A stretch of 31,024 bases of DNA from a virus. Below are positions 3,189 through 30,794 of this stretch, piece by piece. Made by a program: the position numbers and the translations under genes. The notes beneath the pieces are model-generated. The model made no database searches, was not told the DNA's origin, and was given only the letters and a program-made list of their open reading frames with translations. The DNA is taken from the IMG/VR virus record IMGVR_UViG_3300012983_000022; one strand, 5' to 3'. Numbering within the stretch: position 1 is the first letter of the stretch; every line of letters starts with the position of its first letter.

Positions 3189-3644
3189 ATGAAAAAATAT
3201 TTATTAATTATAATATTATCAATAATATCAAATTTTTCTTTTAGTCAAATAATTACACAAAATTATAAAATACAAGCAAAACAAGAAAATGTTATAATAC
3301 GCCAATATGATGTAGTTGAAGGACTTGGAAATACAACAAAAGAAATTCTTGCAAGTATTGCAAAGATAGATTATGAAACCTATTATGAATTGGTAAATTG
3401 TATAGAATATTGCAGAGACAATTTTTCAGAAATTGAAAATATGAATAATGAAAATGAAATAATAACACATAGCAAAAAAATATGGGCTTTTCATAAAAAA
3501 ATAAACGATAAAACAAAAATTCAAATTGTATTATATGATTCAGATTATTATGAAAGCATCTTAAATACACATCACATAATTATGATTTTTGATTTATATT
3601 ATGCTGAAGATTTTGATACAATTTTAAATTCAATAAAATTATAA
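3189..3644 (+). CDS. Secreted hypothetical protein with an N-terminal signal peptide.
   Basis: MKKYLLIIILSIISNFSFSQ is a hydrophobic leader with an SFSQ-type end. Confidence 0.6.
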   Translation: MKKYLLIIILSIISNFSFSQIITQNYKIQAKQENVIIRQYDVVEGLGNTTKEILASIAKIDYETYYELVNCIEYCRDNFSEIENMNNENEIITHSKKIWAFHKKINDKTKIQIVLYDSDYYESILNTHHIIMIFDLYYAEDFDTILNSIKL

Positions 3645-3656
3645 AAATAGATAATT

Positions 3657-4799
3657 ATGAAGAGAATATTATATATACCAAGCACAATGAATGGAGGAGT
3701 TTATTATTATAGGGTTTATACTCCAATGAAATCACTTGTTGAAATGTACCCAAATGAATTTGATATTACAATCAATAATACATATAAATTCACCGACCAA
3801 GAAAAAGATGAAATAGGAAAAAACTTTGATATTGTTATTGTTCACCAAGCATTATATAATCCTGAAATACAGGACGCATTTTGGAACACTATTATATATT
3901 GTAAGAAAACATATGGAACAAGATTTGTACTTGACATTGACGACTATTGGGATTATGGAAAAACTCACCCATATAATAATGTTTGTCAATTTTTTGCATA
4001 TCCTTTAAAGATGATGATGAATTTTAAATTATTTGATTATGTTACAACTACTACAGAATATTTCAAGTCTGTAATTTCAGAATATTTTCCTGAAGAAAGA
4101 ATAGTTGTTTTTGAAAATGCAATTTCATTGGAAGACACACAATTTGTTAAAGAAAAAAACAAATCTGATAAATTAAGATTTGGAATCACTGGCGGCTCTT
4201 CTCATACTGAAGATATTAAACAGTTGCTTGAAATACCAAAATATCTCACAGACAAACAATTAAATCAAATAGAATTGGTATTTTGTGGATATAATGCTGA
4301 AGATGCTGAAGTATGTGAAATTGATGACAATGGAAATATATCCAAAAAAGAAAAAATGGACATCAAAAATAATTGGTGGTACACTACAGAAAACCAATTT
4401 AAAAGTTCATTTAAAAACTATAAAAGAATAGAAACAAGGTCAATTGATAATAAAGAATATGGCAGCATTTATAGAAATATTGATATTTTGATGGTTCCAT
4501 TATTAAACAATAAATTCAATAGATGTAAATCGGAATTAAAATTTATAGAAGCTGGTTTCACAAATACAGCCGTTATATCTTCAAATGTAATACCATACAA
4601 TAATTTTGGTGAAAATGAATATGATTGCTTATTTGTAAAAGAAAACACGCCTGAATCTTGGGCCAAAACAATAAAGAAAATTTTAAGAGATAAGGACTAT
4701 GTAAAAATTATGGCTGAAAGATTAAATTCAAAAGTTACTGAAACACGAAACCTTGAAGACATAACAAATAAAAGAGCAGAATTTTTCAAAAATATTTAA
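3657..4799 (+). CDS. Putative GT-B fold glycosyltransferase.
   Basis: The two-domain layout and C-terminal half (DILMVPLL..NRCKSELKFIEAGFTNTAVISSNV..Y) resemble the GT1/GT4 nucleotide-sugar binding half. By-eye call only. Confidence 0.45.
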   Translation: MKRILYIPSTMNGGVYYYRVYTPMKSLVEMYPNEFDITINNTYKFTDQEKDEIGKNFDIVIVHQALYNPEIQDAFWNTIIYCKKTYGTRFVLDIDDYWDYGKTHPYNNVCQFFAYPLKMMMNFKLFDYVTTTTEYFKSVISEYFPEERIVVFENAISLEDTQFVKEKNKSDKLRFGITGGSSHTEDIKQLLEIPKYLTDKQLNQIELVFCGYNAEDAEVCEIDDNGNISKKEKMDIKNNWWYTTENQFKSSFKNYKRIETRSIDNKEYGSIYRNIDILMVPLLNNKFNRCKSELKFIEAGFTNTAVISSNVIPYNNFGENEYDCLFVKENTPESWAKTIKKILRDKDYVKIMAERLNSKVTETRNLEDITNKRAEFFKNI

Positions 4800-4808
4800 T
4801 TTTTTTAA

Positions 4809-4837
4809 TTGATAATTTTAATTAAAATTTGTATATT
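4809..4837 (+). promoter_or_regulatory. Class-2 promoter: TTGATA, 17 nt, TATATT.
   Basis: Shares the 14-mer aaaatttgtatatt with the 27828-27856 promoter. Confidence 0.55.
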
Positions 4838-4843
4838 ATAATA

Positions 4844-4969
4844 GAAACGCAGTAAGTTTCGGCCCACCATAGTCGGCTGTGTTTTATCATTAGGTTTTAA
4901 AATACCAACAAAAATTCTCTATCGTTATTAAACGAAAAAAGCGCCTCTATTCCCAAGGTGCTTTTTTTT
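4844..4969 (+). ncRNA. Candidate small RNA unit of about 125 nt (sRNA-2) with its own promoter and terminator.
   Basis: No ATG-initiated ORF. 5' hairpin gaaac-gcagtaa-gtttc (4844-4860). Terminator at 4940-4969. Confidence 0.4.
4935..4969. terminator. Bidirectional rho-independent terminator between sRNA-2 (+) and tRNA-Pro (-).
   Basis: agcgcc (4940-4945) pairs with ggtgct (4957-4962). An A-run precedes the stem and a T8 run overlaps and follows its 3' arm. Confidence 0.65.
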
Positions 4970-4973
4970 ATTG

Positions 4974-5046
4974 TCTAAATAAAAGGATTTGAACCTTTAT
5001 CTCAGGTTCCCAAAACCAGTATTCTACCTGATTGAACTATATTTAG
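4974..5046 (-). tRNA. tRNA-Pro (anticodon UGG), 73 nt, no encoded CCA.
   Basis: Hand-folded cloverleaf: acceptor ctaaata/tatttag, D arm gttc-aatcaggta-gaat, anticodon arm ctggt-tttggga-acctg (U33, G37, one U-U mismatch), T arm aaagg-ttcaaat-ccttt. Confidence 0.8.
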
Positions 5047-5047
5047 A

Positions 5048-5488
5048 TTATGAACCCATTTTAACTATACTGAATATTTTTTTTCTATTATGTACACTAT
5101 CAAAACTAATATGAATCCACTTTGATTGACCTTTTTTCTCAATTATACATTGGTCAAACTCTTTGTCTTTTATCCATTCTTCAACAAACTTAACAAATTC
5201 ATCAAAACTTTTACCAACTGGAACAATATCTGCTGCTTTACCACTCATATGTTGACTATTTTTAACACCGCCAACCATTTTATTAAGTAAATAACTTCTA
5301 TATCCGCTTGTAATTTTAATTGGTGAACCAAACGCTTCTCTTAATGGGTCCAAAACATTAACAACTAATTTATCCAAATTATAAATAACATATTCATTTG
5401 GTGTATTATCAATATTGAATTTTTCTGCTGTTTGTGATTTAATAAATTCATCAAGTTTAAAATAATTCCATTTCATATTAATTTTCAT
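5048..5488 (-). CDS. Endolysin, peptidase M15 family (Peptidase_M15_3-like).
   Basis: FKLDEF...PIKITSGYRSYLLNKMVGGVKNSQHMSGKAADI...WIHISFD carries the zinc-ligand pattern SxHxxGxAxD...H. Confidence 0.85.
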   Translation of the reverse strand: MKINMKWNYFKLDEFIKSQTAEKFNIDNTPNEYVIYNLDKLVVNVLDPLREAFGSPIKITSGYRSYLLNKMVGGVKNSQHMSGKAADIVPVGKSFDEFVKFVEEWIKDKEFDQCIIEKKGQSKWIHISFDSVHNRKKIFSIVKMGS

Positions 5489-5792
5489 TTAATAATTCTT
5501 TTTCATAATCATCATCTAAACCGTTACCATCATCATCTTTTCCAATATTAATTGAACTGTGTCCAAAATTGAATTTGGCAACCCTTCCATCTTCAACTGC
5601 TTTTGCACCAAATGCTAAAGTGGGCCATAAAAACAATAATCCAACGGCTTTAAATATTGAACCATCTATAATGAACATTGGTGGAGTTAATGCGCCGCCT
5701 AAAAACAATCCGATAGAAATTAACAGCGTTATCCAAAATGCTATAAGATAATGCTTATTCAACACTTTTTGACATTTAATATCTTTTGCCAT
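5478..5792 (-). CDS. Holin-like membrane protein with 2 TMDs and an acidic C-terminal tail.
   Basis: TMDs YLIAFWITLLISIGLFLGGAL and IFKAVGLLFLWPTLAFGA. Overlaps the endolysin start by 11 nt. Confidence 0.6.
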   Translation of the reverse strand: MAKDIKCQKVLNKHYLIAFWITLLISIGLFLGGALTPPMFIIDGSIFKAVGLLFLWPTLAFGAKAVEDGRVAKFNFGHSSINIGKDDDGNGLDDDYEKELLNEN

Positions 5793-5820
5793 TTTTAATT
5801 TTAATTTTTGGTTTTATTTG

Positions 5821-5893
5821 TTGCGGGTGTAAGATTCGGACTTACGATTTCAAGTTTATGAGACTTGCGTGTTAACCACTGCACTAACCCGCA
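5821..5893 (-). tRNA. tRNA with CAU anticodon (elongator Met or lysidine-dependent Ile2), 73 nt.
   Basis: Acceptor tgcgggt/acccgca, anticodon arm caagt-ctcataa-acttg, T arm gtaag-tccgaat-cttac. The T-loop has C at position 55. Confidence 0.8.
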
Positions 5894-5899
5894 TTGAAA

Positions 5900-5919
5900 G
5901 CAGGGTTTTTAGGCCCTGC
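5900..5919 (-). other. GC-rich stem-loop between the fiber gene stop and the tRNA. Possibly a weak terminator or processing hairpin.
   Basis: gcaggg (5900-5905) pairs with ccctgc (5914-5919). Only a 3-nt U-run follows on the minus strand. Confidence 0.45.
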
Positions 5920-5925
5920 TTAAAT

Positions 5926-8900
5926 TTAGTTTATAGTTTTTATTCTTCTTGATACACAACCGTAAGTTCCTCTTACAATTATCTTAGTGTATATGTTTGT
6001 ATCCCAAGAACCGTTTTCAGTTAATGTAAATACTGTCTGTGAAGTTGCAGAATCACTGTCCACCTTATATATGTAAGTTTGACCAGCTCTATTAGAAGAA
6101 TTTGAAGGATATTCAGAACCTTCTGTGAAACACATACCAGTTGAACGCTCTTGTCTAATAAGATAAGGTGTTGCATTTTCTGAAAAATTGCTCCAAGAAC
6201 ATTTTATTGAAGAACCATCAAGTGAAGCATTAAATGTATAATTTACAAATTCAAAGTGACTGAAACCTGAATAAGTATTTTCATTTGAATTATAAAGTCT
6301 TGCTTTATATCGACCAGCTCCTAATACACTTCCATCCATTTTATCAGAATCAGTAAGGTCAAATATAATCCAATCTTCTTTATCATAAGCGTCTTCAGGA
6401 TATAATGTATCTGAAGGGAATGTTTCAACGGCTGAGATACCTATATTTTTTACAGGTGTTGTCATTTCGGTATCATCCTCATAATATATTTGCAAGTAAT
6501 TGTACTTATTAACACCTCTGTGTATGTTAAGATATGCTCTGTAGTCATTCAAACTATCTGAAGAATCCCCTATTTGGAATGTAACATATTCTCCACGGAA
6601 AGTAGTAATATCAGGGTCAATTTGAATATTTGACTTGAATCTCCAATTGTTTATAGTGAAATAATCATTGTCATCATAGTAATCATCTAAGTTAGCATTT
6701 TCCCAATCATTATATCTCAAGATTCCAAATGCTTCATTGTTTTGAATATATCTATTGTATCTTTTTTGAAATTCATCCCTTGTGTAAGCTCTTGAGTTTG
6801 TGAAAGGTCTTGCTTGCTCAGTTATTACTATAAGTTGTGTTACTCCATTATAGTCTTTATAAATATCTGATACGGCTACACAGTGTCCTGGTTGCCATAT
6901 AAAGTCCATAGGTTGTAAAGCATCAATCATTTCATCCCATTGTTCTTGTGTTATAGTATCTGCATAATATTTTTCATAAAGAACTTGAAGATTTGGTATT
7001 CTTGGTCCTGTGTTACTTGCGTTACGCCTCATATAATCTCCTGAAACATAAATATTATCCTGTCCCATAAGATAACCTGTAAGACCTGTGCAAACTGTTC
7101 CATAGAAAGAAGCACAATAGTGTGAATTAAGTCCACGATAAGTATATCCATATTTTGATACTTTTGTTCCTATTGTACTATTATTTACAATTGAAGAATT
7201 TATTCTTTCTGTGTACATAACAGAACGCTTATTCTGAATTGCGGTTACAAGCGTTTTAAGAGATATGTTCTGTCCTACATATTGGTTGTATTCGCAAGTT
7301 TCACTATAAAGAGTTCCTATTTCATACCATCCTTCTCTATATCTTGTATTCCAAAATTGACCTTCACCATCATTTGAAGTCATAGGAATTGATTTTCCTG
7401 TATTGCTCCAATTATTGAACTTATCAATAAATTGGTCATATCTTGCTATTTCAGATATATTTGTAATCTTATAAAGTCTTCTCTTATATGCTTCATAAGG
7501 CTTGTCAGTAGGAATTACTTTAGTTAAGTCAGAATTATCCAAGTATGTAAAGAACTTAATTACGCTATCATACTTTGTTATAGGTTTTGATTCGGCTGAT
7601 TCGTTTGCTACACCTATAGTAAGTCTAAGCATATAGCCTGGATATGGTTGAGCTAATGAATAGAAAGTATAAGTGCTATTATATTTGTCGAAGAAGAATG
7701 GATTTACTACTTTTCCGTTTGTGTTGTAAAGAACACCTTTTATTATTTGGAAATCATCATTGACTTTAATAGTGAATCCTTTTGACAAATCAATGTATGA
7801 AGTTGTCCAATATATTTCGTTAGATGAAAGATTAGTAAGTTCTCCGTTTTCACCAAGTTTTCCAGGTGTTAAACTTATTCCTTGCAAAGGTAGAATAGGA
7901 AGTTGAAGAGGTTTAAGAGAGTTCTTAACTAATTTTATAGTAGGATAGTTAGCATAACCTGTATTTGTACTACGATATGCAACGAAACAAGCGTTTGATG
8001 GAAACTTATAGTTGTTGTAGTAATATGGAGGATTATTTACTTGGTCAATGCAGTTTCCGTCTCTGTCAAAAACAAAGTAAAATCCTGGATAAGCTGTCGT
8101 ACTGAATCCATAGAACTCCATAGAATCATATCCTTCAACATAGAAAAGTTTATAGAAGTGGCCTGAACCTGTTCCAAAATATGAAGTCAACAAGTCATCT
8201 ACTGTGTACTTACCTAAGTTGCCATATCTTCCGTTTACAGCAGGTGAATCATTAATTTTTACACCTCCAAAAACAGGAGCATCTTTACTGAACATATTAG
8301 AAGCAATATTTGAAGCTGAAGGTATGGAAGAATAAAAAGTTTCTTCATTCTGAGAAACAAAATTGCTCTTTGGAATGAATGCTACATTTACCAAATAACT
8401 GCTATCCGCCCAATAAGGCATTATCAAATACTTAGCTGTCTTAGGAATTATGTTTCCAGTCCAGTAACCTCCGTTATTCAAGTTATTGGTTATGCAAGCA
8501 ACAACTATGTCATTCTCATCGACTAAGCAAGCAAGTGGTGCCGAAGAAGCAGAAGTGCTTGAGCCATAAATCTGTACCGAGCACATAACATATTTTTCAG
8601 AATCCACAGGTATTCTGTAAGTACGGTGACTGTTGTTGGTTCCACTTTCTAGCAATGTATTCCAGTTCTTTCCTATTGCGTATCTCTTGAAAAGACCTAT
8701 ATAAGCATCACTTGTGTGGTCGCTCCCTTGAGTTGAACTATATTTACAAACAGGGAACTTGTTAGAAACTTCTTCAGTCATTCTAACAATATCCTTTTTA
8801 TAATATATTAATATCTGAGGATTGATTTTATCCTCAAGAATCTTTGATTCTGTTATGTCATCCAAGAAATACACCAAAGTCTGTCCTGCGTCAAAACGAG

Positions 8901-23006: not shown

Positions 23007-23578
23007 TTGAAATAATTGGCTGTAGCCCTGATTGAAATCAGATATTGCTTTAGAAAAAAAAACATTATTTCATTTGCTGTCATTATATCCAAATTTGAAT
23101 TTATATTTTCTACCAATTCCTGTATATTGTATCCTTCAGCATATTTTTTACCTTTTGGAATTATGAAGCAAGCCAATATGTTTCCTATTATTCTTTCATT
23201 TGTTTTCCTCTTTGGAAAGAATGTCTGAAAATCTATATATTGTGCCACAGTGAAATTCTGTAAATTTGTATCAATGCTATATTTTTCTCCGTTAATTTCA
23301 ATTGTCTTGAATTTTACATTTTCTTTTAATTGAAATTCTTCCATCCACAATGATTCCACTTGAAGATTTCTGAAATCAGGCCAACTTAAATTCCATATTT
23401 CTTCTTCTCTTTTTCCAGTTATGAATGCAATTTTAATTATAATTTTTTCATAATCAGTCAAAGCATCATCACTCAATCTTTCGCACAAATCGAAGTACTC
23501 ATCTATTGTTACATCTTTCCAACTTTTCTTAATGGTATTTTCCATATCCCTTGTTTTCTTTTTTATTTTTATTTCCAA
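22868..23578 (-). CDS. Hypothetical protein (236 aa), possibly chaperone-like.
   Basis: ORF immediately after TerL, with a Lys-rich C-terminal tail. Confidence 0.55.
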   Translation of the reverse strand: MEIKIKKKTRDMENTIKKSWKDVTIDEYFDLCERLSDDALTDYEKIIIKIAFITGKREEEIWNLSWPDFRNLQVESLWMEEFQLKENVKFKTIEINGEKYSIDTNLQNFTVAQYIDFQTFFPKRKTNERIIGNILACFIIPKGKKYAEGYNIQELVENINSNLDIMTANEIMFFFLKQYLISIRATANYFNWILKRMKRMKKKSKNSQEIETVEKEWEKMKKATLDGLRSLTMLDN

Positions 23579-24845
23579 AACTTAATCTGTAATTATTATT
23601 TGATTCCAATTTATGTATGCCGCTTAAAGCAAACGCATTAGCCATAACTATATCATCGTGAACTCCATACATACCATTATATGTAATTTGACCACTCTTT
23701 GTAATTTCAATTTGATAACCACCAAGTTCTACATATTGTTCATTGTCAGTCAAAAACTTAATGGTTTCCTCATTTATCCTCTTTATCATATAATCTATGA
23801 TTTCCCTCTTTGACGGATTTGATGTTATAAAATCATCAAAATTATAATTAAGGCCAATTGCTTCTTTAAGTAACGGAGTATATACATTTCCTATTGAATT
23901 TGTCTCACAAATTATTTTTTGTACTTTATAATCTTTATATTTATTTCTAATTATGTTACTTATCCATTGAATTTGCTCTGTCGGATTTAGATTGTTTTGA
24001 TAATCAAGTCCAACCTGTATGGCTGAAGAATCAAATGCAGAAACAACTGTATTATCATTATCTGTTCCTGTTGCCCAGTCTATACCTATAAAAATGTCAT
24101 TATTATTTAATTCTGTAGTTTTGAATACATTTTTGCTCAAGTCAAATACTCCACCAACTTCATCAACAAACTCTCCAAGTATTTCACTCACAAATTGCCA
24201 TTTAGGTAGTATCTTTCTATATAGTTCAATTTTATCTTCTGGCAATACTTCTGATGTGTCATATTTGGATAAATCAAATGATTGTATCGGGCCATCAGGA
24301 TTTTTTATACCTTCATTGAAATATTCATAAAATATACCTGTTTTTGTCCTTGGAGTACTGACCATCAATACATTACATTTATACATATTGACATATGGGA
24401 GCACAACGCCGTACAAATCATCTTTCAAATAGGCACATTCATCCAAAATTAAAATTCCTGAACCTTTTACGGTTAAACCCCTCAAATTATCACCTGAAGC
24501 TGCTGACTTAAATAAAATTGAAGATTTGTTTTTGAAATTAATTTCCATACTGCTACTGTTGATTGATTCAACGAAAGGAGCATCTTTTATGAAATCACAT
24601 AATTCCTTGAATAGTTTTCCGCAACTTGAAAAAGTTAATGATACACAAATACTTGTTGAATTTGAATAAGTTATCGAATGACGCAATAGTTCCATTTCAC
24701 ACATAAATGATTTTCCGCATTGTCTTTTGCTTTTTGCAACAAAAATCTTCTGTGCGTGTGGTCCTGCATTTTTTATAGCATCAACTATATCTTTCTGCCA
24801 GGGAAACAATTTTGGTCCTATTATTTTTTTATTCGCCATATTCAA
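23529..24845 (-). CDS. terL: Terminase large subunit.
   Basis: Walker A KSKRQCGKS, Walker B ILILDECAY, and nuclease-domain motifs IGIDWATGTDNDNT and HDDIVMANA. Confidence 0.9.
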   Translation of the reverse strand: MNMANKKIIGPKLFPWQKDIVDAIKNAGPHAQKIFVAKSKRQCGKSFMCEMELLRHSITYSNSTSICVSLTFSSCGKLFKELCDFIKDAPFVESINSSSMEINFKNKSSILFKSAASGDNLRGLTVKGSGILILDECAYLKDDLYGVVLPYVNMYKCNVLMVSTPRTKTGIFYEYFNEGIKNPDGPIQSFDLSKYDTSEVLPEDKIELYRKILPKWQFVSEILGEFVDEVGGVFDLSKNVFKTTELNNNDIFIGIDWATGTDNDNTVVSAFDSSAIQVGLDYQNNLNPTEQIQWISNIIRNKYKDYKVQKIICETNSIGNVYTPLLKEAIGLNYNFDDFITSNPSKREIIDYMIKRINEETIKFLTDNEQYVELGGYQIEITKSGQITYNGMYGVHDDIVMANAFALSGIHKLESNNNYRLSFGNKNKKENKGYGKYH

Positions 24846-25862: not shown

Positions 25863-26148
25863 TTAAAAAACTTTTAATTTTATTTTGTATTTCCTTAATT
25901 CGTAGATATATAGTCGTTGGAGAAACTTTAAATAGTTTTGCACAATCCCTTGAATTTCCTATTTCAGCATATTCAAGTATTATTCGTCTATCGGTTTCAT
26001 CAAGTTTGGTATATATTATCTTTTTCAATTTTCTTATTTTTTCCTCATCCTCATCGAATATCGAATCATTTGGTTTATATTCATCAAGAATTTGGTATAT
26101 GTTCATTTCCGCTTCTTCGTATCGTTCTTTAATATTCTTACTATTCAT
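25846..26148 (-). CDS. Sigma-70 region-4-like HTH protein (C-terminal half of a split sigma-factor-like gene).
   Basis: LDETDRRIILEYAEIGNSRDCAKLFKVSPTTIYLRIKEIQNKIKSFL. The Met at 26148 overlaps the HNH stop (ATGAATAG). Confidence 0.6.
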   Translation of the reverse strand: MNSKNIKERYEEAEMNIYQILDEYKPNDSIFDEDEEKIRKLKKIIYTKLDETDRRIILEYAEIGNSRDCAKLFKVSPTTIYLRIKEIQNKIKSFLNDDNN

Positions 26149-26719
26149 AATATTTATTATTACTAAATTTCCATAAATACCCACCTGCTTGTTTTCTTTC
26201 ATTTTTACATACTTTTAATATGTTTGAATGTTGTACACCTGTAGCCTTTTGAGCCTCTATTGGCGAAATAAAATAATTAATAAATTTGCCATTCAATGTA
26301 TATTGTTCAACAGGTATTTGGCATCCTCTTGAATTATTTTTATTTTTAGTTTCTTGTATTTTATTTCTTGTGTTTCCATAAAGTGCATTGTATGATTTAT
26401 CACACCATTCCAAATTATCTACCCTATTGTTTAGTTTGTTTTCGTCTTTATGGTTAACACAGGGCAAATTATCAGGATTTGGTATGAATGCTTCAGCAAC
26501 TAAAATATTTATTCTTTTTGATTCATAAATACCATTTTTACAAAGTCTAAAATAATAATATCCAGAACCACAAATTTTTGGTGTTTCAATTTTACCTTTT
26601 AATTTAATTTTTCTTCCGTTTTTATCAATTATTATTCTATTAACGCTTCTGATTTTGCCAAAATTACTTATTTCATAATAGCCTTCATATCCTTTAATAA
26701 TTTTCCAAATTTCAATCAT
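26141..26719 (-). CDS. HNH/NUMOD4 homing endonuclease, paralog of the wrap-around HNH gene.
   Basis: WKIIKGYEGYYEISNFGKIRSV, AEAFIPNPDNLPCVNHKDENKLNNRVDNLEWCDKSYNALYG, and a C-terminal DNA-binding-like segment EAQKATGVQHSNILKVCK. Confidence 0.9.
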   Translation of the reverse strand: MIEIWKIIKGYEGYYEISNFGKIRSVNRIIIDKNGRKIKLKGKIETPKICGSGYYYFRLCKNGIYESKRINILVAEAFIPNPDNLPCVNHKDENKLNNRVDNLEWCDKSYNALYGNTRNKIQETKNKNNSRGCQIPVEQYTLNGKFINYFISPIEAQKATGVQHSNILKVCKNERKQAGGYLWKFSNNKYYE

Positions 26720-27500: not shown

Positions 27501-27533
27501 AAAATCCCATAACTTTTTTTGCTATGGGATTTT
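27501..27533 (-). terminator. Terminator hairpin after the small membrane protein gene.
   Basis: aaaatcccata (27501-27511) pairs with tatgggatttt (27523-27533), 11 bp. The flanks are U-rich. Confidence 0.6.
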
Positions 27534-27538
27534 AATTA

Positions 27539-27754
27539 TCAAGCTAACACTGCTATTATTCTGAAAATAGCCAAAACTAATTCAATGTTTAAAATTACTG
27601 AAAGCCACAAAAAAACATCCTTGAATGTAGTTTTCTCTTTTAAATTTTTCCACCAGTGTTTTAATTTTGATTCTTGCTTGATAATTACTGTGGCTGTTGG
27701 TGGCATATTAGCCAATTTTAAGTATTCTTCCATTGAAAATTGTTTGTTTTCCAT
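27539..27754 (-). CDS. Small membrane protein (71 aa, C-terminal TMD).
   Basis: FLWLSVILNIELVLAIFRIIAVLA. Sits behind a minus-strand class-1 promoter and the aattaaaattATG context. Confidence 0.5.
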   Translation of the reverse strand: MENKQFSMEEYLKLANMPPTATVIIKQESKLKHWWKNLKEKTTFKDVFLWLSVILNIELVLAIFRIIAVLA

Positions 27755-27773
27755 AATTTTAATTCTTTATTAA

Positions 27774-27801
27774 TAAATAGTATCAAACTTGAAAAAATCA
27801 A
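27774..27801 (-). promoter_or_regulatory. Class-1 promoter on the minus strand: TTGATT, 16 nt, TATTTA.
   Basis: The minus strand reads ggTTGATTttttcaagtttgaTACTATTTATtaat. Confidence 0.6.
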
Positions 27802-27827
27802 CCAAAATGAAAAAAAATAATTTAAAT

Positions 27828-27856
27828 TTGCAAACAAAAAATAAAATTTGTATATT
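27828..27856 (+). promoter_or_regulatory. Class-2 promoter: TTGCAA, 17 nt, TATATT.
   Basis: Shares aaaatttgtatatt with the 4809-4837 promoter. Confidence 0.55.
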
Positions 27857-27862
27857 TATAAT

Positions 27863-27959
27863 AAAGAAATTAATAAGTCGCACCACATTTGACAAAACAA
27901 TATAAATCCTTTTTCTGAAACGGTAGTGGTGCATCGGAGTAAGTTAAAGGATTTTTTTT
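27863..27959 (+). ncRNA. Candidate small RNA of about 95 nt (sRNA-1) with interleaved helices and a U-run.
   Basis: Helix A is 27880-27886 / 27926-27932 (gcaccac/gtggtgc). Helix B is 27905-27912 / 27946-27953 (aatccttt/aaaggatt), followed by T6. No credible ORF. Confidence 0.4.
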
Positions 27960-27967
27960 ACTTTTTA

Positions 27968-27996
27968 TTGATTTTTTTAATTCTTTATACTATTTA
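27968..27996 (+). promoter_or_regulatory. Class-1 promoter (TTGATT, 17 nt, TATTTA) facing the ORF-free region.
   Basis: ctttttattgatttttttaattctttatactatttatata matches the consensus used upstream of early protein-coding genes. Confidence 0.6.
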
Positions 27997-28003
27997 TATA
28001 CAA

Positions 28004-28770
28004 AAGGCAACGGTCGATATACAACTCAAATGTGGAATGTCACAATGGGTAAGACCAAAAAAAAAAATAAAGTTCTTTGATTTAAAAAACACTGACGGAC
28101 CTCTTACGGCATTTACAAGAGGTGTCACAGCGGTAACAAATCGCCAAGTACGAGAATAAAGGACCGCAGTAGAAGTCGGGTGGCAGTAGCCATCAAATAG
28201 ATGGTGAGACCTGAACACATTGTAACTCAAGCCCCGATACCGTCAAAAACAATCAGTTTTTAAAAAACTACAGCCTCACTTGATGTCTTTGGGAAAGTGA
28301 GATTTTGAATGGCAAAGTCATTCAATCTGAGAAAGCAAATAACCCACGGTAGCATAAGTTTCTGATTAAGAGTAATATTTTAAAAAAAATGTGGTCCCTC
28401 CTATAGGGATTACTGTGTCTTGTTAATAACAAGTGCTTTAGATAATAGATTAAATTAAAATCTAAATTAAAAAATAAAAAAATTGAAGATTCTTAATTAA
28501 TTTATTAACACATTTGAAAAATGTGAATGCGAAGCACAGCAAGCATAAAGAAAATAATTGAAATTTACGAATAACAAATATTACAAGTGCTTACGCAAAT
28601 TGAGATTTTTAAATTTTGTTTTTTATTATAAAATAATTAATAAAATTCTAAAATGCGTTAGCACTAATTGATAATAGCAATGTTAAATCAGTCTTGGGTA
28701 TAGTGTGCTCTGCCGAAAAAAAACAAAAGGCAAACAATCTCAACCAATCTAAGTTGGAATGTATGGGTTT
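28004..28770 (+). ncRNA. Candidate large structured ncRNA. Boundaries are approximate and the 3' end is undefined.
   Basis: No credible ORF. The GC-rich core is about 42-50% GC in the 60-nt blocks I counted at 28141-28260, against an AT-rich genome. A promoter sits at 27968-27996, and many hairpins and nested long-range helices are visible (see findings). Confidence 0.45.
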
Positions 28771-28771
28771 C

Positions 28772-29254
28772 TTATCTACGGGCCCTGAATAAAGACCAAA
28801 TAATTGAAGATACAGTGAAAACAAACCACATTAATGTTATCCAAGCCCACCAAGGATATTTTATTTTTTCTTCAACCACAGGATAAGGTTTTGGCACTTC
28901 TTTCTCAACTATTGAATCATTTGTCACTACCCTCTCAACATACTTTATTTGGTATTGTATGGCGTTCTTATTTTTCAACTCACCTCTCAATAGATGATTT
29001 GTAGTGTCTACCCAGGAATGACTAATTGAAATTGAATTTTCCAATACAAGTGTATCATATATCGGCACTATATCAACATATCTCTCAATTGGAATGTAGC
29101 AAATACTGTCCCTTGTTGTTATTGAATCCTTGTATGTCCAAATTATTTCTTCTTTTTGGATTATTGTCGGCGGCTGCGTTTTGCAACCAACAAAAAATAA
29201 GCATAGAGCCAAAATCAGGCCCTGTAACAAGTTTTTAATTTTAAAATGATACAT
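28772..29254 (-). CDS. Lipoprotein with a C-terminal TMD, a unimolecular-spanin-like architecture.
   Basis: Lipobox LFFVGC in MYHFKIKNLLQGLILALCLFFVGCKTQ. C-terminal TMD YPWWAWITLMWFVFTVSSIIWSLF followed by RARR. Confidence 0.5.
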   Translation of the reverse strand: MYHFKIKNLLQGLILALCLFFVGCKTQPPTIIQKEEIIWTYKDSITTRDSICYIPIERYVDIVPIYDTLVLENSISISHSWVDTTNHLLRGELKNKNAIQYQIKYVERVVTNDSIVEKEVPKPYPVVEEKIKYPWWAWITLMWFVFTVSSIIWSLFRARR

Positions 29255-29392: not shown

Positions 29393-29794
29393 ATGAACAA
29401 AAACCTAAATCAAGCTAAAAGAGCTAAAAATGACGAATTTTATACGCAACTTGAAGACATAGAAAAGGAACTTGCTTGTTATGATGTTGAAAATTTCAAA
29501 GGACAAGTGATATATTGTCCTTGTGACGATTACAGATTGTCTAATTTTGTTAAATGCTTCAAGAACAATTTTGAATATCTTGGATTAAAGAAACTTATAG
29601 CCACCAACTATGATATTGGTGACGGTGCTTGGAAATATGAATATGACGGTGAAAATGAAACAATTACCAAACTTGAAGGTAATGGTGACTTTATGTCTGA
29701 TGAATGTACAAAAATAAAGGAAGAATGTGATATGGTTATAACGAATCCACCATTCTCATTGTTCAGAAAATTTGTAAAGTGGCTGTATGACTAA
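29393..29794 (+). CDS. EcoRI-methylase-like N6-adenine MTase, N-terminal catalytic fragment (N).
   Basis: NDEFYTQLEDIEKEL...VIYCPCDD...MVITNPPFSLFRKF carries motif IV (NPPF). It stops at 29792-29794, overlapping the next ATG (ATGACTAA). Confidence 0.85.
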   Translation: MNKNLNQAKRAKNDEFYTQLEDIEKELACYDVENFKGQVIYCPCDDYRLSNFVKCFKNNFEYLGLKKLIATNYDIGDGAWKYEYDGENETITKLEGNGDFMSDECTKIKEECDMVITNPPFSLFRKFVKWLYD

Positions 29795-30170
29795 GTTTTT
29801 GATTATCGGAAACCAAAATGCTATTACCTACAAGGAAATCTTTCCTTACATCAAAAACAACGAACTTTGGTTGGGAATGAATTGGGTTAAGGAGTTTATC
29901 CAACCTAACGGAGAAATTAAGAAATTTGGAAACATTTGTTGGTTTACCAATGTAGAAAACAAAAAGAGAAACCAACCTTTGGACTTATACCGCAAGTATA
30001 ATCCAAATGACTACAAAATCTATGACAATTATTGCGCAATAAATGTTGACAAGGTGGCTGAAATTCCAGAAGACGATTACATTGACATTGAAATTGATGA
30101 AGAAGACTATCCTAAATGGAAAGCCGCTTATGGCAATGATGTTGAATTAATTGAAGATGAAGAAAAATAA
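29787..30170 (+). CDS. MTase middle fragment, copy 1 (M1).
   Basis: MTKFLIIGNQNAITYKEIFPYIKNNELWLG...WFTN...YDNYCAINVDKVAEIPEDDY continues the family's sequence directly after the N fragment. It ends in an acidic tail. Confidence 0.8.
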   Translation: MTKFLIIGNQNAITYKEIFPYIKNNELWLGMNWVKEFIQPNGEIKKFGNICWFTNVENKKRNQPLDLYRKYNPNDYKIYDNYCAINVDKVAEIPEDDYIDIEIDEEDYPKWKAAYGNDVELIEDEEK

Positions 30171-30360
30171 TAAAAAGAAAATTAGAGTACACAGGCCAAT
30201 ATGGGGAACTCCCATCACATTTTTGGATAAGTATTGCCCTACTCAATTTGAAATACTCGGAATTGCCAATAGCGCAAGATGGATTGGTGATTTTCCGTGT
30301 TATACAATAATTAATGGGGAAAAAATATACAATAGAATTTTAATTAAAAAGATTAAATAA
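30157..30360 (+). CDS. MTase C-terminal fragment, copy 1 (C1).
   Basis: MKKNNKKKIRVHRPIWGTPITFLDKYCPTQFEILG...GEKIYNRILIKKIK. ATG at 30157 (the track starts at TTG 30151). Overlaps M1 by 14 nt in the +1 frame. Confidence 0.75.
   Translation: MKKNNKKKIRVHRPIWGTPITFLDKYCPTQFEILGIANSARWIGDFPCYTIINGEKIYNRILIKKIK
30178..30255 (+). repeat. Partner of the 78-bp near-identical repeat at 449-526.
   Basis: 76/78 identical, with a 63-bp perfect core at 30193-30255. Confidence 0.9.
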
Positions 30361-30368
30361 AACAACTT

Positions 30369-30794
30369 ATGGACTACAATAAGAAGTTTTTGATTTTGGG
30401 CAATAACAATGCAATCACTTATAAGGAAATTTTCCCATATATAAAAAACAATGAACTTTGGTTGGGCTTTTCCGCTAACAAGACTATGAAATTCCAACTT
30501 TCCGATTCTTACGAAAAGTGGGATGAAATGGACAAAAACGGAAAGAAATATGGCAAAGTCCCTGCAATCACTTGGTTTACAAACATTCCCCACAATAAGA
30601 GAAATCAACCTTTGGACTTATACCGAAAGTATAATCCAACTGACTATCCAAGGTACGATAACTATTTGGCTTTTAATGTTGACAAAGTGTCGGAAATCCC
30701 TGAAGATGAATACATTGATATTGAAATAGATGAATCAGAATTGGAAGATTGGATTAAAGCGTATGGCGATGATATTGAAATTTTGGAATCCTAA
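30369..30794 (+). CDS. MTase middle fragment, copy 2 (M2).
   Basis: MDYNKKFLILGNNNAITYKEIFPYIKNNELWLG...WFTN...YDNYLAFNVDKVSEIPEDEY plus an acidic tail. It has the same start and end boundaries as M1. Confidence 0.8.
   Translation: MDYNKKFLILGNNNAITYKEIFPYIKNNELWLGFSANKTMKFQLSDSYEKWDEMDKNGKKYGKVPAITWFTNIPHNKRNQPLDLYRKYNPTDYPRYDNYLAFNVDKVSEIPEDEYIDIEIDESELEDWIKAYGDDIEILES

Follow-up and report, generated by a model that had tools for sequence, protein, structure and literature searches.

The region 28004-28445 (plus strand, both ends approximate) of the viral DNA analysed here is predicted to be the gene of a large structured non-coding RNA belonging to a new family. The DNA is a stretch of 31,024 nucleotides from IMG/VR virus record IMGVR_UViG_3300012983_000022 and is referred to below as the window. 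The assignment is supported by GC content, closed reading frames, conservation, base pairing and the lack of a match in Rfam. The original prediction, a large structured plus-strand RNA, probably of a new family, is upheld in its core by the Rfam searches, the closed reading frames and the covariation. To our knowledge, large and intricately folded RNAs are rare in bacteria and phages, and the large ornate RNAs that are known have repeatedly proved to carry out unusual chemistry or to form unusual assemblies. The present locus adds an uncatalogued family, in which a strict core of 21 nucleotides is embedded in a freely varying scaffold.

Extent, coding potential and promoter motif

The module is hosted by a non-coding gap of 1 kb between divergent and convergent operons. 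The GC content across 28000-28450 is 0.38-0.41 against 0.21-0.26 in the flanks, in agreement with the GC enrichment claimed earlier for the locus. The RNA had been proposed to extend over about 0.77 kb; this length is reduced to about 0.44 kb, as the GC-rich and helix-dense part stops near 28445. The positions that follow (28450-28749) have a GC content of 0.23 and are poorly conserved, and the AT-rich spacer at 28446-28722 (GC 0.23) lies outside the conserved fold, has a few short conserved blocks and contains repeats of low complexity only.

No credible open reading frame is present in 28004-28770, where just two mutually antisense frames of 77 and 78 residues occur, as had been pointed out. 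All frames are closed within 28004-28445, with 6-13 stops per frame, and the homologous loci have 2-16 stops in each frame, the frames being closed in every lineage checked. At the RNA locus, four of five relatives have no called gene, and no conserved protein reading frame is found at the homologous loci of the relatives checked. The nucleotide identity of the RNA among lineages A, B and F (described below) is 63-95%, which is at least that of the neighbouring spanin-like gene. Between the window and the related contig L001 it amounts to 95% for the RNA and 72% for the adjacent gene.

Immediately 5' of the RNA lies a promoter-like motif, TTGATTTTTTTAATTCTTTATACTATTTAT, at 27968-27997 on the plus strand. 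It is one of five matches in the window to TTGA-N14-20-TAYTATTTAT, of which 0.08 would be expected. The matches are situated at 1182, 1591, 27968 and 29333 on the plus strand and at 27773 on the minus strand. The recurrence of the motif in front of other genes therefore stands as it was first described; the label "early" does not, because the site at 27773 precedes a conserved gene of 71 residues, and the motif is better regarded as the general promoter type of this phage. The promoter-like motif is also seen 5' of the RNA in lineages A, B and F. The promoter, the start site and the 3' end of the transcript are predicted from motifs only, and the motif at 27968 would be used as the promoter.

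Fold and covariation in seven lineages

Homologues of the RNA have been identified by synteny with the spanin-like gene, whose 89 homologues served as the anchor, and by scans with motifs of the core. They fall into seven sequence lineages (A-G) and are carried by related phages of about 28 kb, which were found through synteny, by integrase-bearing viral or MAG contigs of about 50% GC and by integrative elements, one of them in a Bacteroidales MAG. Two viral versions, both short and AT-rich, are also included. Several of the RNA-bearing contigs come from JGI sample 3300028888, which we take to be a rumen sample, and the sole reliable host assignment for the family is Bacteroidales. The size of the RNA ranges from 220 to 740 nt, with lineage E (about 220 nt, G being similar) and lineage D (about 740 nt) at the two extremes. 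Lineage groups A/B, C and D were found to have no neighbouring protein in common, and the junction architecture recurs in the seven lineages without other common sequence and, where flanks are available, without common neighbouring genes. Pattern matches in L007, L025-27, L029, L030, L035 and L037-39 are attributed to chance, as they lie in GC-rich or coding DNA; those in L049 and L050 look like chance too, and L049 does not fit the architecture.

The core of the RNA is a four-way junction at 28093-28245 (plus strand), for which constrained folding gives the same architecture in all seven lineages. Helix P1 (28093-98/28240-45) is directly followed by H2 (28099-105/28117-23) and then by the junction hairpin M (28130-34/28163-67). 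An AGAA strand leads into the invariant 6-bp helix P4 (28175-80/28233-38), which encloses H5 (28190-94/28200-04, loop AAAUA), and the 3' strand of P4 is followed by a single A, the 3' strand of P1 and an A-rich tail. All these elements are found at 28093-28245 and at 12 other loci, seven lineages being represented.

Two strings in the core, together 21 nucleotides, are identical in every true member of the family. The string AGAAGUCGGGU (28171-28181) comprises the junction strand and the 5' strand of P4, and CCCCGAUACC (28232-28241) runs from the 3' strand of P4 across the single A into the first nucleotides of the P1 3' strand and is followed by the A-rich linker. This invariance is partly one of ascertainment for lineages D, E and G, for which both strings were the search pattern; that of AGAAGUCGGGU includes lineages B and F, found via synteny, and lineage C, found via the other motif only. 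The sequences of the stems vary among the lineages and their complementarity is kept. P1 covaries (GACGG/CCGUC, GUGG/CCAC, ACAGG/CCUGU), with compensatory changes in lineages E and G, and H2 differs in sequence from lineage to lineage and directly adjoins P1 in all of them. Shuffled interiors yield a P1-adjoining stem of 4 bp or more in 4-20% of cases per lineage, which corresponds to a joint chance of about 2e-7 for the seven if the lineages are independent. P1, H2 and P4 (the last drawn as 28176-80/28233-37) were among the helices first proposed by eye, and all three have gained comparative support, P4 as an invariant helix. The variable hairpins of the P1 domain could not be aligned by MAFFT.

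A second domain of four helices at 28251-28367 (plus strand) is common to lineages A, B, F and D. Its outer helix is formed by 28251-56/28362-67 and its inner helix by 28268-73/28347-52; the latter reads CUACAG, ACGCUG, CUGUGG and GGGUGCGG in the four lineages, each sequence being complementary to its partner. The hairpins Ha (28275-81/28295-301) and Hb (28305-13/28317-25) complete the domain, which also has a conserved single strand, UCUGAGAAAGCAAAUAACCCA. Comparison supports both hairpins as originally drawn, with Hb extended from 28305-11/28319-25. A loop-to-junction pseudoknot is probable in this domain, as read from the sequences: the candidate strands, spanning 28290-28346, are UGGG in the loop of Ha (28290-93) and CCCA (28343-46), and they appear as UGGG/CCCA in A, B and F, AAGGG/CCCUU in D and UGAG/CUCA in G.

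Lineages A, B, F and D have the 5' extension; C, E and G lack it, and their RNA apparently begins at P1. The extension corresponds to the left copy (DR-L, 28000-28048, plus strand) of a direct repeat discussed below and contains the conserved CGAUAUACAACUCAAAUGUGGAAU. A hairpin of this 5' domain (28012-28056; A8 alignment columns 14-17/55-58) pairs GGUC (28012-15) with GACC (28053-56), and two of its four pairs are changed on both sides and still paired. Towards the other end, the conserved block UAUAGGGAUUACUGU (28402-16) is invariant in A, B and F, and is followed by the terminal hairpin CUUGUU-AAU-AACAAG (28419-33), which had been listed before and is retained in relatives, in B with a changed sequence. 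This hairpin is likely to be the 3' end of the RNA; it is terminator-like, because a U-run comes after it in lineage F (CUUGAUGUUAAGUACUUUUUUAUUU). A long-range helix closing the 5' extension onto UAUAGGGAUUACUGU was predicted from A and B together and was lost once F was added.

The remaining pairings of the early list fared less well. The helix 28395-99/28405-09 is not kept in lineage B. The palindrome at 28509-25 lies in the spacer, outside the RNA, and is identical in A and B and absent from F; the pairing 28586-96/28655-65 reads in the alignment as a short local hairpin in B and F.

Covariation of the helices has been assessed in the A/B/F alignment, which represents only three independent lineages at the column level and from which the tested structures were themselves derived. 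Over 65 predicted pairs, 97.6% of the cells are paired, compared with 33-36% in slid controls, and 16 pairs are changed on both sides compared with 0-4. The covariation score is 0.27 against a control maximum of 0.07, and the observed value was reached by none of 500 shuffles. The second domain, with lineage D included, is 84.8% paired (controls 28-41%) and has 12 of 28 pairs changed on both sides (slid controls 1-5); this pairing figure is understated, because the alignment by covariance model R1 did not bring lineages D and F fully into register. The same model finds matches in lineages A, B, F and D only, with E-values of 1e-16 to 1e-27, and a single match in the window. Lineage C has compensatory changes at nine pairs internally. 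The compensatory changes that had been suggested as a check on the listed helices are thus well above the slid and shuffled controls.

These data also point to the plus strand. G-U is the commonest pair type at four positions of the predicted helices in A, B and F, and few cells are A-C or C-A, the counterparts of G-U on the opposite strand. The plus strand folds better than the minus strand in all six lineages tested, with folding-energy z-scores in the window of -2.0 to -2.3 and -0.7 to -0.9, respectively. Folding energy by itself is weak evidence for the RNA, the z-scores of lineages A, B, F and E being only -0.2 to -2.0.

Comparison with known RNA families

The comparison with Rfam that had been advised was carried out with cmscan and Rfam 15 and gave no family match, either for the window and contigs L028 and L031 (at the gathering score or at E-values up to 10) or for L040, L048 and L051 (at E-values up to 1). 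Lineages A, C, D and E had no BLAST match among GenBank phages.

Short resemblances to known RNAs have been considered. The string AGAAGUCGGG resembles GAAAGUCCGGG of RNase P; the P4-like helix has no bulged U, and the bacterial RNase P RNA models give no match at E-values up to 10. An AGAAGUC string is common to the core and the hairpin ribozyme, in which loop A (AGAA facing N*GUC) and loop B are internal loops of neighbouring arms at a four-way junction. The AGAA here is a junction strand opposite a single A, and no Rfam ribozyme match was obtained. A string like that of the sarcin-ricin loop (AGUACGAGA...GGACCG, 28149-28166) occurs in lineage A only and is not conserved in B or F. All three resemblances have neither Rfam support nor a matching architecture. 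Searches for tRNA, tmRNA and tRNA-like structures with ARAGORN and the Rfam tRNA, tmRNA and TLS models detected none at 28004-28445, and no tRNA or tmRNA was called at the homologous loci.

The original prediction had placed the RNA in the size class of GOLLD and ROOL; it is neither of the two. Like ROOL RNA (RF03087), it is a large non-coding RNA with several junctions that is carried by phages and prophages, has no dedicated protein partner nearby and is, by prediction, a stand-alone transcription unit. No match to the ROOL covariance model was obtained in the window, L028 or L031 (E-values up to 10), and the fold differs, with one four-way junction, one multistem domain and at most one candidate pseudoknot in about 440 nt (220-740 nt in the family), whereas ROOL averages 581 nt and has another junction layout. 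ROOL has few highly conserved positions (PMC5737381), in contrast to the 21 invariant nucleotides in two strings found here. ROOL occurs in three phyla (PMC5737381; Weinberg et al. 2017), of which the paper says just that number, and the one reliable host of the present family is Bacteroidales.

GOLLD RNA (RF01998), of about 800 nt, shares with the present RNA the character of a large ornate phage or prophage RNA. It has one conserved and one variable part (PMC12286853), to which the universal junction core on the one hand, and the 5' extension and second domain of some lineages on the other, may be compared. It gave no Rfam match, and the RNA in the window is about half its size. GOLLD and ROOL are often found beside tRNAs (PMC5737381, PMC12286853); the present RNA has no adjacent tRNA island, the two tRNAs of the window lying at 4973-5893, about 22 kb away. 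Both known RNAs form multimeric RNA-only nanocages (PMC12286853).

The RNA module and its possible role

The slot occupied by the RNA is variable, and close relatives lack the module or have protein genes there. The TerL-based relatives L005 and L006 (53-55% identity) have neither the RNA nor an equivalent gap, and in L009-L015, L021-L024 and L042-L047 the RNA is absent even when two mismatches per core string are allowed. The module is bounded by a convergent gene for a spanin-like lysis protein of 160 residues (28772-29254, minus strand) with a lipobox, LFFVGC, and a C-terminal membrane helix; in relatives this gene comes after an amidase/endolysin gene. The first 45 or so nucleotides of the RNA recur at 28723-28770 (plus strand) as the right repeat copy, DR-R (ACAAAAGGCAAACAAUCUCAACCAAUCUAAGUUGGAAUGUAUGGG), which directly adjoins the convergent gene at its stop codon. 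L001, L016, L017, L020, L048, L031 and L033 are arranged in this way too, with repeat cores specific to the lineage. The repeat probably belongs to the RNA module. Related phages without the RNA have no profile match at the position, and the two spanin-downstream regions that were read, those of L042 and L044, have no clear single copy of the kind expected of an empty site.

Our best guess, to which we give a fair preponderance of belief, is that of a free-standing gene whose product, a non-coding RNA of about 440 nt from a family absent from Rfam 15, serves as a trans-acting accessory module with the junction as its functional site. The gene sits behind a promoter motif of the phage's general type and probably ends at the terminal hairpin, and its RNA folds into the 5' extension, the four-way junction built on 21 invariant nucleotides and the four-helix second domain. 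Such a module would be self-contained and accessory, with no need of a dedicated neighbouring protein. The folded RNA would act in trans, its invariant junction serving either to dock a conserved partner, from the cell or the phage, or as a pocket for catalysis or for a ligand, and its variable stems being mere scaffold. GOLLD and ROOL are likewise thought of as trans-acting folded RNAs.

The direct repeat raises two other readings. As DR-L closely resembles DR-R, and DR-R falls within the 3' untranslated part of the spanin-like transcript, the 5' end of the RNA would be imperfectly complementary to that mRNA, and the RNA could be an antisense regulator that controls the stability, termination or timing of the convergent lysis message, with the large fold as a scaffold or sensor. 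The repeat begins exactly at the predicted RNA start and excludes the promoter; its first 11-17 nt differ among A, B, F and D while the left and right copies match within each, and DR-R abuts a convergent stop codon whether the gene is spanin-like (A, B, F) or an integrase (L033). We nevertheless hold this role to be unlikely. Lineages C and E, which have no 5' extension, have no repeat either, and none is visible in the short available sequence of G, so that pairing through the repeat is not the core function of the family. The mismatches between DR-L and DR-R are transversions and not wobble-preserving changes, L031 has a further gene between DR-R and the integrase, and an origin of the repeat at the DNA level, by recombination or as att-like ends, explains the same facts. 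A somewhat less doubtful reading, still with a low probability, is that of a promoterless mobile cassette for an RNA gene, bounded by the repeat at the transcription start, that would spread among unrelated elements and use resident promoters, its core being a catalytic site or one that captures a host factor. If this were true, the core might, for instance, be a ribozyme or act as a tRNA-shaped decoy that counters host defence, and the family a new functional class of RNA beyond another orphan fold.

That the RNA mimics a tRNA, or is a processing substrate that engages RNase P and the like or decoys tRNA-targeting defences, is very unlikely in our view, even with a four-way junction of cloverleaf topology and P4-A-P1 continuity in all seven lineages. 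The acceptor/T-arm stack of a tRNA has 12 bp, and the likeness rests on this geometry: P4 (6 bp) and P1 (5-6 bp) would form a coaxial pair with a continuous 3' strand and a single-stranded A-rich tail. In lineage C, tRNA-like minihelices come after the RNA, with weak Rfam tmRNA and mascRNA matches in L028 (6805-6856), and the frequent company of tRNAs in GOLLD and ROOL, cited above, points the same way. The resemblance is, however, purely topological. The core escapes detection by ARAGORN and by the Rfam models for tRNA and tmRNA, the sizes and loops of the arms differ from the tRNA pattern, the arm in the place of the T arm has an insertion of 31-52 nt instead of a 7-nt T loop, no nucleotide separates P1 from H2, and there is no CCA. 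The least probable reading makes the locus a cis-acting DNA element, such as an origin or packaging site, or a cis-regulatory leader. The 1-kb gap, its AT-rich flanks and the terminal direct repeat would suit the former, and a leader would be expected immediately 5' of a co-oriented gene, which is where the element is found in lineage E. The compensatory changes, however, keep pairing of the RNA type, with G-U on one strand only, and members of the family are also carried by integrative elements and by phages whose replication and packaging genes are unrelated. The window has no co-oriented gene downstream, the RNA running into the end of the convergent gene. An origin or packaging site would be marked by iterons or initiator boxes and an AT-rich unwinding region; the search here gave only low-complexity AT-rich repeats and the one direct repeat of 45 nt. 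An origin or packaging function is unneeded for the GC-rich part, and the AT-rich spacer may have one.

The spread of natural sizes, from a minimal version of about 220 nt (lineage E, G being similar) to an expanded one of about 740 nt in lineage D, is favourable for determining the structure and for dissecting it by mutation. The direct repeat at the predicted start of transcription is a second, testable puzzle. The accessory slot, filled by protein genes in related phages, offers a direct genetic handle on the role of the RNA; among the genes that replace it in L044, the only domain given by Pfam is a DUF559/PvuRts1I-like endonuclease domain.

Extent of the RNA locus

The stretch 28004-28445 of the window (+ strand) carries a conserved, strand-specific, non-coding and multi-domain structure of RNA type, referred to here as the RNA, the family of which is absent from Rfam 15. 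The window is a segment of a tailed-phage genome of about 30% GC. The RNA locus lies in a gap bounded on its left by the start of a long leftward operon for structure and packaging, which includes the genes for the terminase large subunit (23529-24845), the portal, a protease and the tape measure, and on its right by the end of a short gene, also leftward (28772-29254). Rightward EcoRI-type methyltransferase genes start at 29393. To the left of the locus a 71-aa ORF (27539-27754, - strand) with a hydrophobic C-terminus is preceded by a promoter motif (27773-27801, - strand), adjoined by a terminator-like hairpin (27501-27533, - strand) and conserved with 64-68% identity in the lineage B phages. 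It is probably a real gene, and the truly non-coding gap is therefore shortened on its left side to 27755-28771.

The sequence of the window by itself is suggestive of an RNA but not decisive. No credible ORF is present at the locus, in agreement with the original prediction. The GC enrichment claimed for the entire region holds for 28000-28450 (0.38-0.41) but not for 28450-28749 (0.23). The promoter-like motif holds up and is over-represented, with 5 sites where 0.08 are expected, but it is not specifically early; one copy faces left ahead of the 71-aa gene, and the motif is therefore the general promoter type of the phage. The folding energy is only mildly better than that of shuffled sequences, with z-scores of about -2.0 to -2.3 for the + strand and -0.7 to -0.9 for the - strand.

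The size of 0.77 kb proposed earlier is not retained. The conserved fold extends from about 28004, just past the promoter motif, to a 3' block (UAUAGGGAUUACUGU, 28402-28416) and a terminal hairpin (28419-28433), which in lineage F is followed by a U-run and hence looks like a terminator. Since the fold ends near 28433 and the AT-rich region 28446-28722 is poorly conserved, the RNA is about 0.44 kb long. The palindrome at 28509-28525, formerly listed among the RNA helices, falls outside it; it is identical in lineages A and B and missing in F.

Homologous loci and their genomic contexts

The cmscan search suggested by the original prediction has left the RNA call in place; none of the 4227 Rfam families matched the window locus at gathering score or at E-values up to 10. 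A search of GenBank phages with the locus also gave no match. The product of the short leftward gene (28772-29254, - strand) is 160 aa long, has a lipobox (LFFVGC) and, at its C-terminus, a membrane helix, and gives no Pfam match; as the gene also follows an amidase/endolysin gene in relatives, it has been considered a spanin-like lysis gene, and its product looks like a single-component (unimolecular) spanin. A near-identical IMG/VR contig (L001), which forms lineage A with the window, is 95% identical in the non-coding region and 72% identical at the nucleotide level in this gene. Use of the spanin-like protein (89 homologues) as synteny anchor, followed by contig look-ups, gave two further alignable lineages, B (L016, L017, L018 and L020; spanin-like protein 54-59% identical) and F (L048; 54% identical).

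The other spanin-anchored relatives have no RNA region, the gap in L042 and L043 being 162 nt. Three contigs (L044-L046) have three protein genes in the RNA slot (about 3631-5967), coding for 168, 52 and 531 aa, the first with a DUF559/PvuRts1I-like endonuclease domain; this phage was found in the JGI sample of L001, among others. The slot of the RNA module is a variable accessory locus.

A second search, with motifs conserved between A and B, has identified lineages C, D, E (L040) and G (L051) on contigs that have no other sequence in common with the window phage; the remaining pattern-scan matches were chance occurrences in GC-rich or coding DNA. Lineage C comprises a viral contig with an integrase and about 50% GC (L028) and two contigs from genome bins (L034 and L036). 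Lineage D comprises L031 and L033, the latter from a Bacteroidales MAG, where the module lies inside an integrative element adjoining tRNA-Leu, tRNA-Gly and a tyrosine integrase. No neighbouring protein is common to the groups A/B, C and D, and the RNA-like element is all that they share. The RNA is an optional module of small phages, integrase-bearing contigs and integrative elements.

The only reliable host assignment is the Bacteroidales MAG, in which the gene beside the module has a type IX secretion sorting domain. The bins of L036 (CAVHUG010000001.1) and L034 (CAVDBL010000021.1) are labelled Pseudobutyrivibrio and Bifidobacteriaceae. The integrases of lineages C and D have in common the Arm-DNA-bind_5 and Phage_int_SAM_5 domain combination, and TAnnTTTG-like boxes lie upstream in lineages C and E; both are typical of Bacteroidota, and the bin labels may be wrong for L036 and L034. 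Following the lineage C RNA on its 3' side (L028 6740-6990, also in L036) are a terminator, a fresh TAnnTTTG-type promoter box and, beyond it, two related units with tRNA-like acceptor/T-arm minihelices; L028 6805-6856 has weak Rfam tmRNA and mascRNA matches, and ARAGORN reports no tRNA.

Covariation and the core junction

The proposal of a large structured non-coding RNA of a new family is strengthened by compensatory changes above controls among the homologous loci. In the A/B/F alignment (65 pairs) 97.6% of the cells are paired, against 33-36% in controls with helix partners slid by 1-3 columns; 16 pairs are changed on both sides (controls 0-4), the covariation score is 0.27 (controls at most 0.07) and none of 500 shuffles reaches it. 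Domain 2 (28251-28367), common to A, B, F and D, has an outer and an inner helix, two hairpins and a single strand that is conserved. Across the four lineages the inner helix has the sequences CUACAG, ACGCUG, CUGUGG and GGGUGCGG, and each of these goes with a matching partner. With D included (28 pairs), 84.8% of the cells are paired (slid controls 28-41%), 12 pairs are changed on both sides (1-5) and the score is 0.40 (at most 0.14), again reached by 0 of 500 shuffles, figures obtained despite D and F being partly out of register in that alignment. A covariance model built on domain 2 (R1) matches only A, B, F and D, with one match in the window. Within lineage C by itself, compensatory changes affect nine pairs.

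The helices contain G-U pairs, and A-C or C-A cells, which would be G-U on the other strand, are rare in the A/B/F alignment; the sole change in domain 2 hairpin Hb between the window and L001 is from G-C to G-U. For each of the six lineages examined, folding is better on the + strand than on the - strand. A candidate pseudoknot between loop and junction is suggested by strings that change together, from UGGG/CCCA in A, B and F to AAGGG/CCCUU in D and UGAG/CUCA in G.

All 13 loci fold into the same four-way junction with only helices P1 and P4 constrained: P1 is directly followed by hairpin H2, then by hairpin M, the strand AGAA and P4 enclosing hairpin H5, whose loop is AAAUA in A, B, C and G; the 3' side comprises the P4 3' strand, a single A, the P1 3' strand and an A-rich tail. 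The stems vary in sequence by lineage and keep their complementarity. P1 is GACGG/CCGUC (A-D, F), GUGG/CCAC (E) or ACAGG/CCUGU (G), and H2 is ACCUCUU, ACCU, GCUGUAA, GCAC (ACAC in L034), GUUUCCG, AUUC or AGGAUUU, each with a complementary partner. Among dinucleotide-shuffled interiors, only 4-20% per lineage have a stem of 4 bp or more directly against P1, giving a joint probability of about 2e-7 if the lineages are independent. The strings AGAAGUCGGGU (28171-28181) and CCCCGAUACC (28232-28241) do not vary among the members. In B and F, found by synteny, this does not depend on the discovery route; in C, found through the 3' motif, that holds for the 5' string; and in D, E and G the invariance is partly an ascertainment effect. 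The loop of hairpin M (28149-28166) reads AGUACGAGAAUAAAGGACCG, similar to the 23S rRNA sarcin-ricin loop (AGUACGAGAGGACCG) but for an insertion of 5 nt; the likeness is not conserved in B or F and is probably a coincidence.

Direct repeat, possible role and neighbouring genes

The first 45 nt or so of the RNA (28000-28048) recur at 28723-28770, immediately next to the stop codon that ends the convergent spanin-like gene. The left copy begins exactly after the second box of the promoter, which is the predicted transcription start, and the promoter is not repeated. The same arrangement is found in L001, L016, L017 and L020 (B), L048 (F) and L031 and L033 (D), the spacing being 724-1027 nt. Over its first 11-17 nt the repeat is lineage-specific, yet the left and right copies match within each lineage. 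In D the homology of L031 and L033 stops exactly at the right copy, with two different integrases beyond. The repeat is absent from lineages C and E, in which the 5' extension is missing, and is not seen in the short sequence available for G. The repeat could be an att-like boundary of a promoterless cassette, the remnant of a tandem copy or a sequence pairing in antisense with the 3' end of the convergent mRNA.

The feature is real and represents a new family among the large, structured RNAs of phages. That it is a structured RNA gene of a new family is considered very probable; the full statement, in which this gene also acts in trans through its junction, is held with moderate confidence. 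The RNA would be a stand-alone, trans-acting molecule with the invariant junction as functional site and the variable stems as scaffold. That it is an optional occupant of an accessory slot points to a function in host takeover, evasion of defences or competition, as opposed to core replication. The rival explanations considered are a DNA element or leader, an antisense regulator working through the repeat and a tRNA-shaped mimic. Likenesses to tRNA, RNase P, the hairpin ribozyme and the sarcin-ricin loop were taken as leads, and all of them failed the available tests. The interest of the new RNA family would rise sharply should the invariant junction turn out to be catalytic or to bind a partner, or should the module between the repeats be mobile.

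Large ornate phage RNAs are typified by GOLLD and ROOL (PMC5737381, PMC12286853). The window RNA is like them in being stand-alone, phage-borne and protein-independent in context, but it has no match to their Rfam models and differs in size and junction layout, and therefore belongs to neither.

The 138 nt at 27802-27939 correspond to about 765 nt in the closest relative (L001 5342-6106) and, in lineage B phages, to the position of a 188-aa gene without assigned function. The EcoRI-type adenine methyltransferase (29393-30794, + strand) is split among ORFs of 133, 127 and 141 aa. The second and the third both match one C-terminal portion of the Pfam model; this could be a frameshifted, duplicated or interrupted gene. 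A free-standing HNH homing endonuclease gene (NUMOD4, HNH_3, NUMOD1) lies inside the leftward operon (26141-26719, - strand), and similar genes occupy other positions in the relatives L009, L017 and L042.
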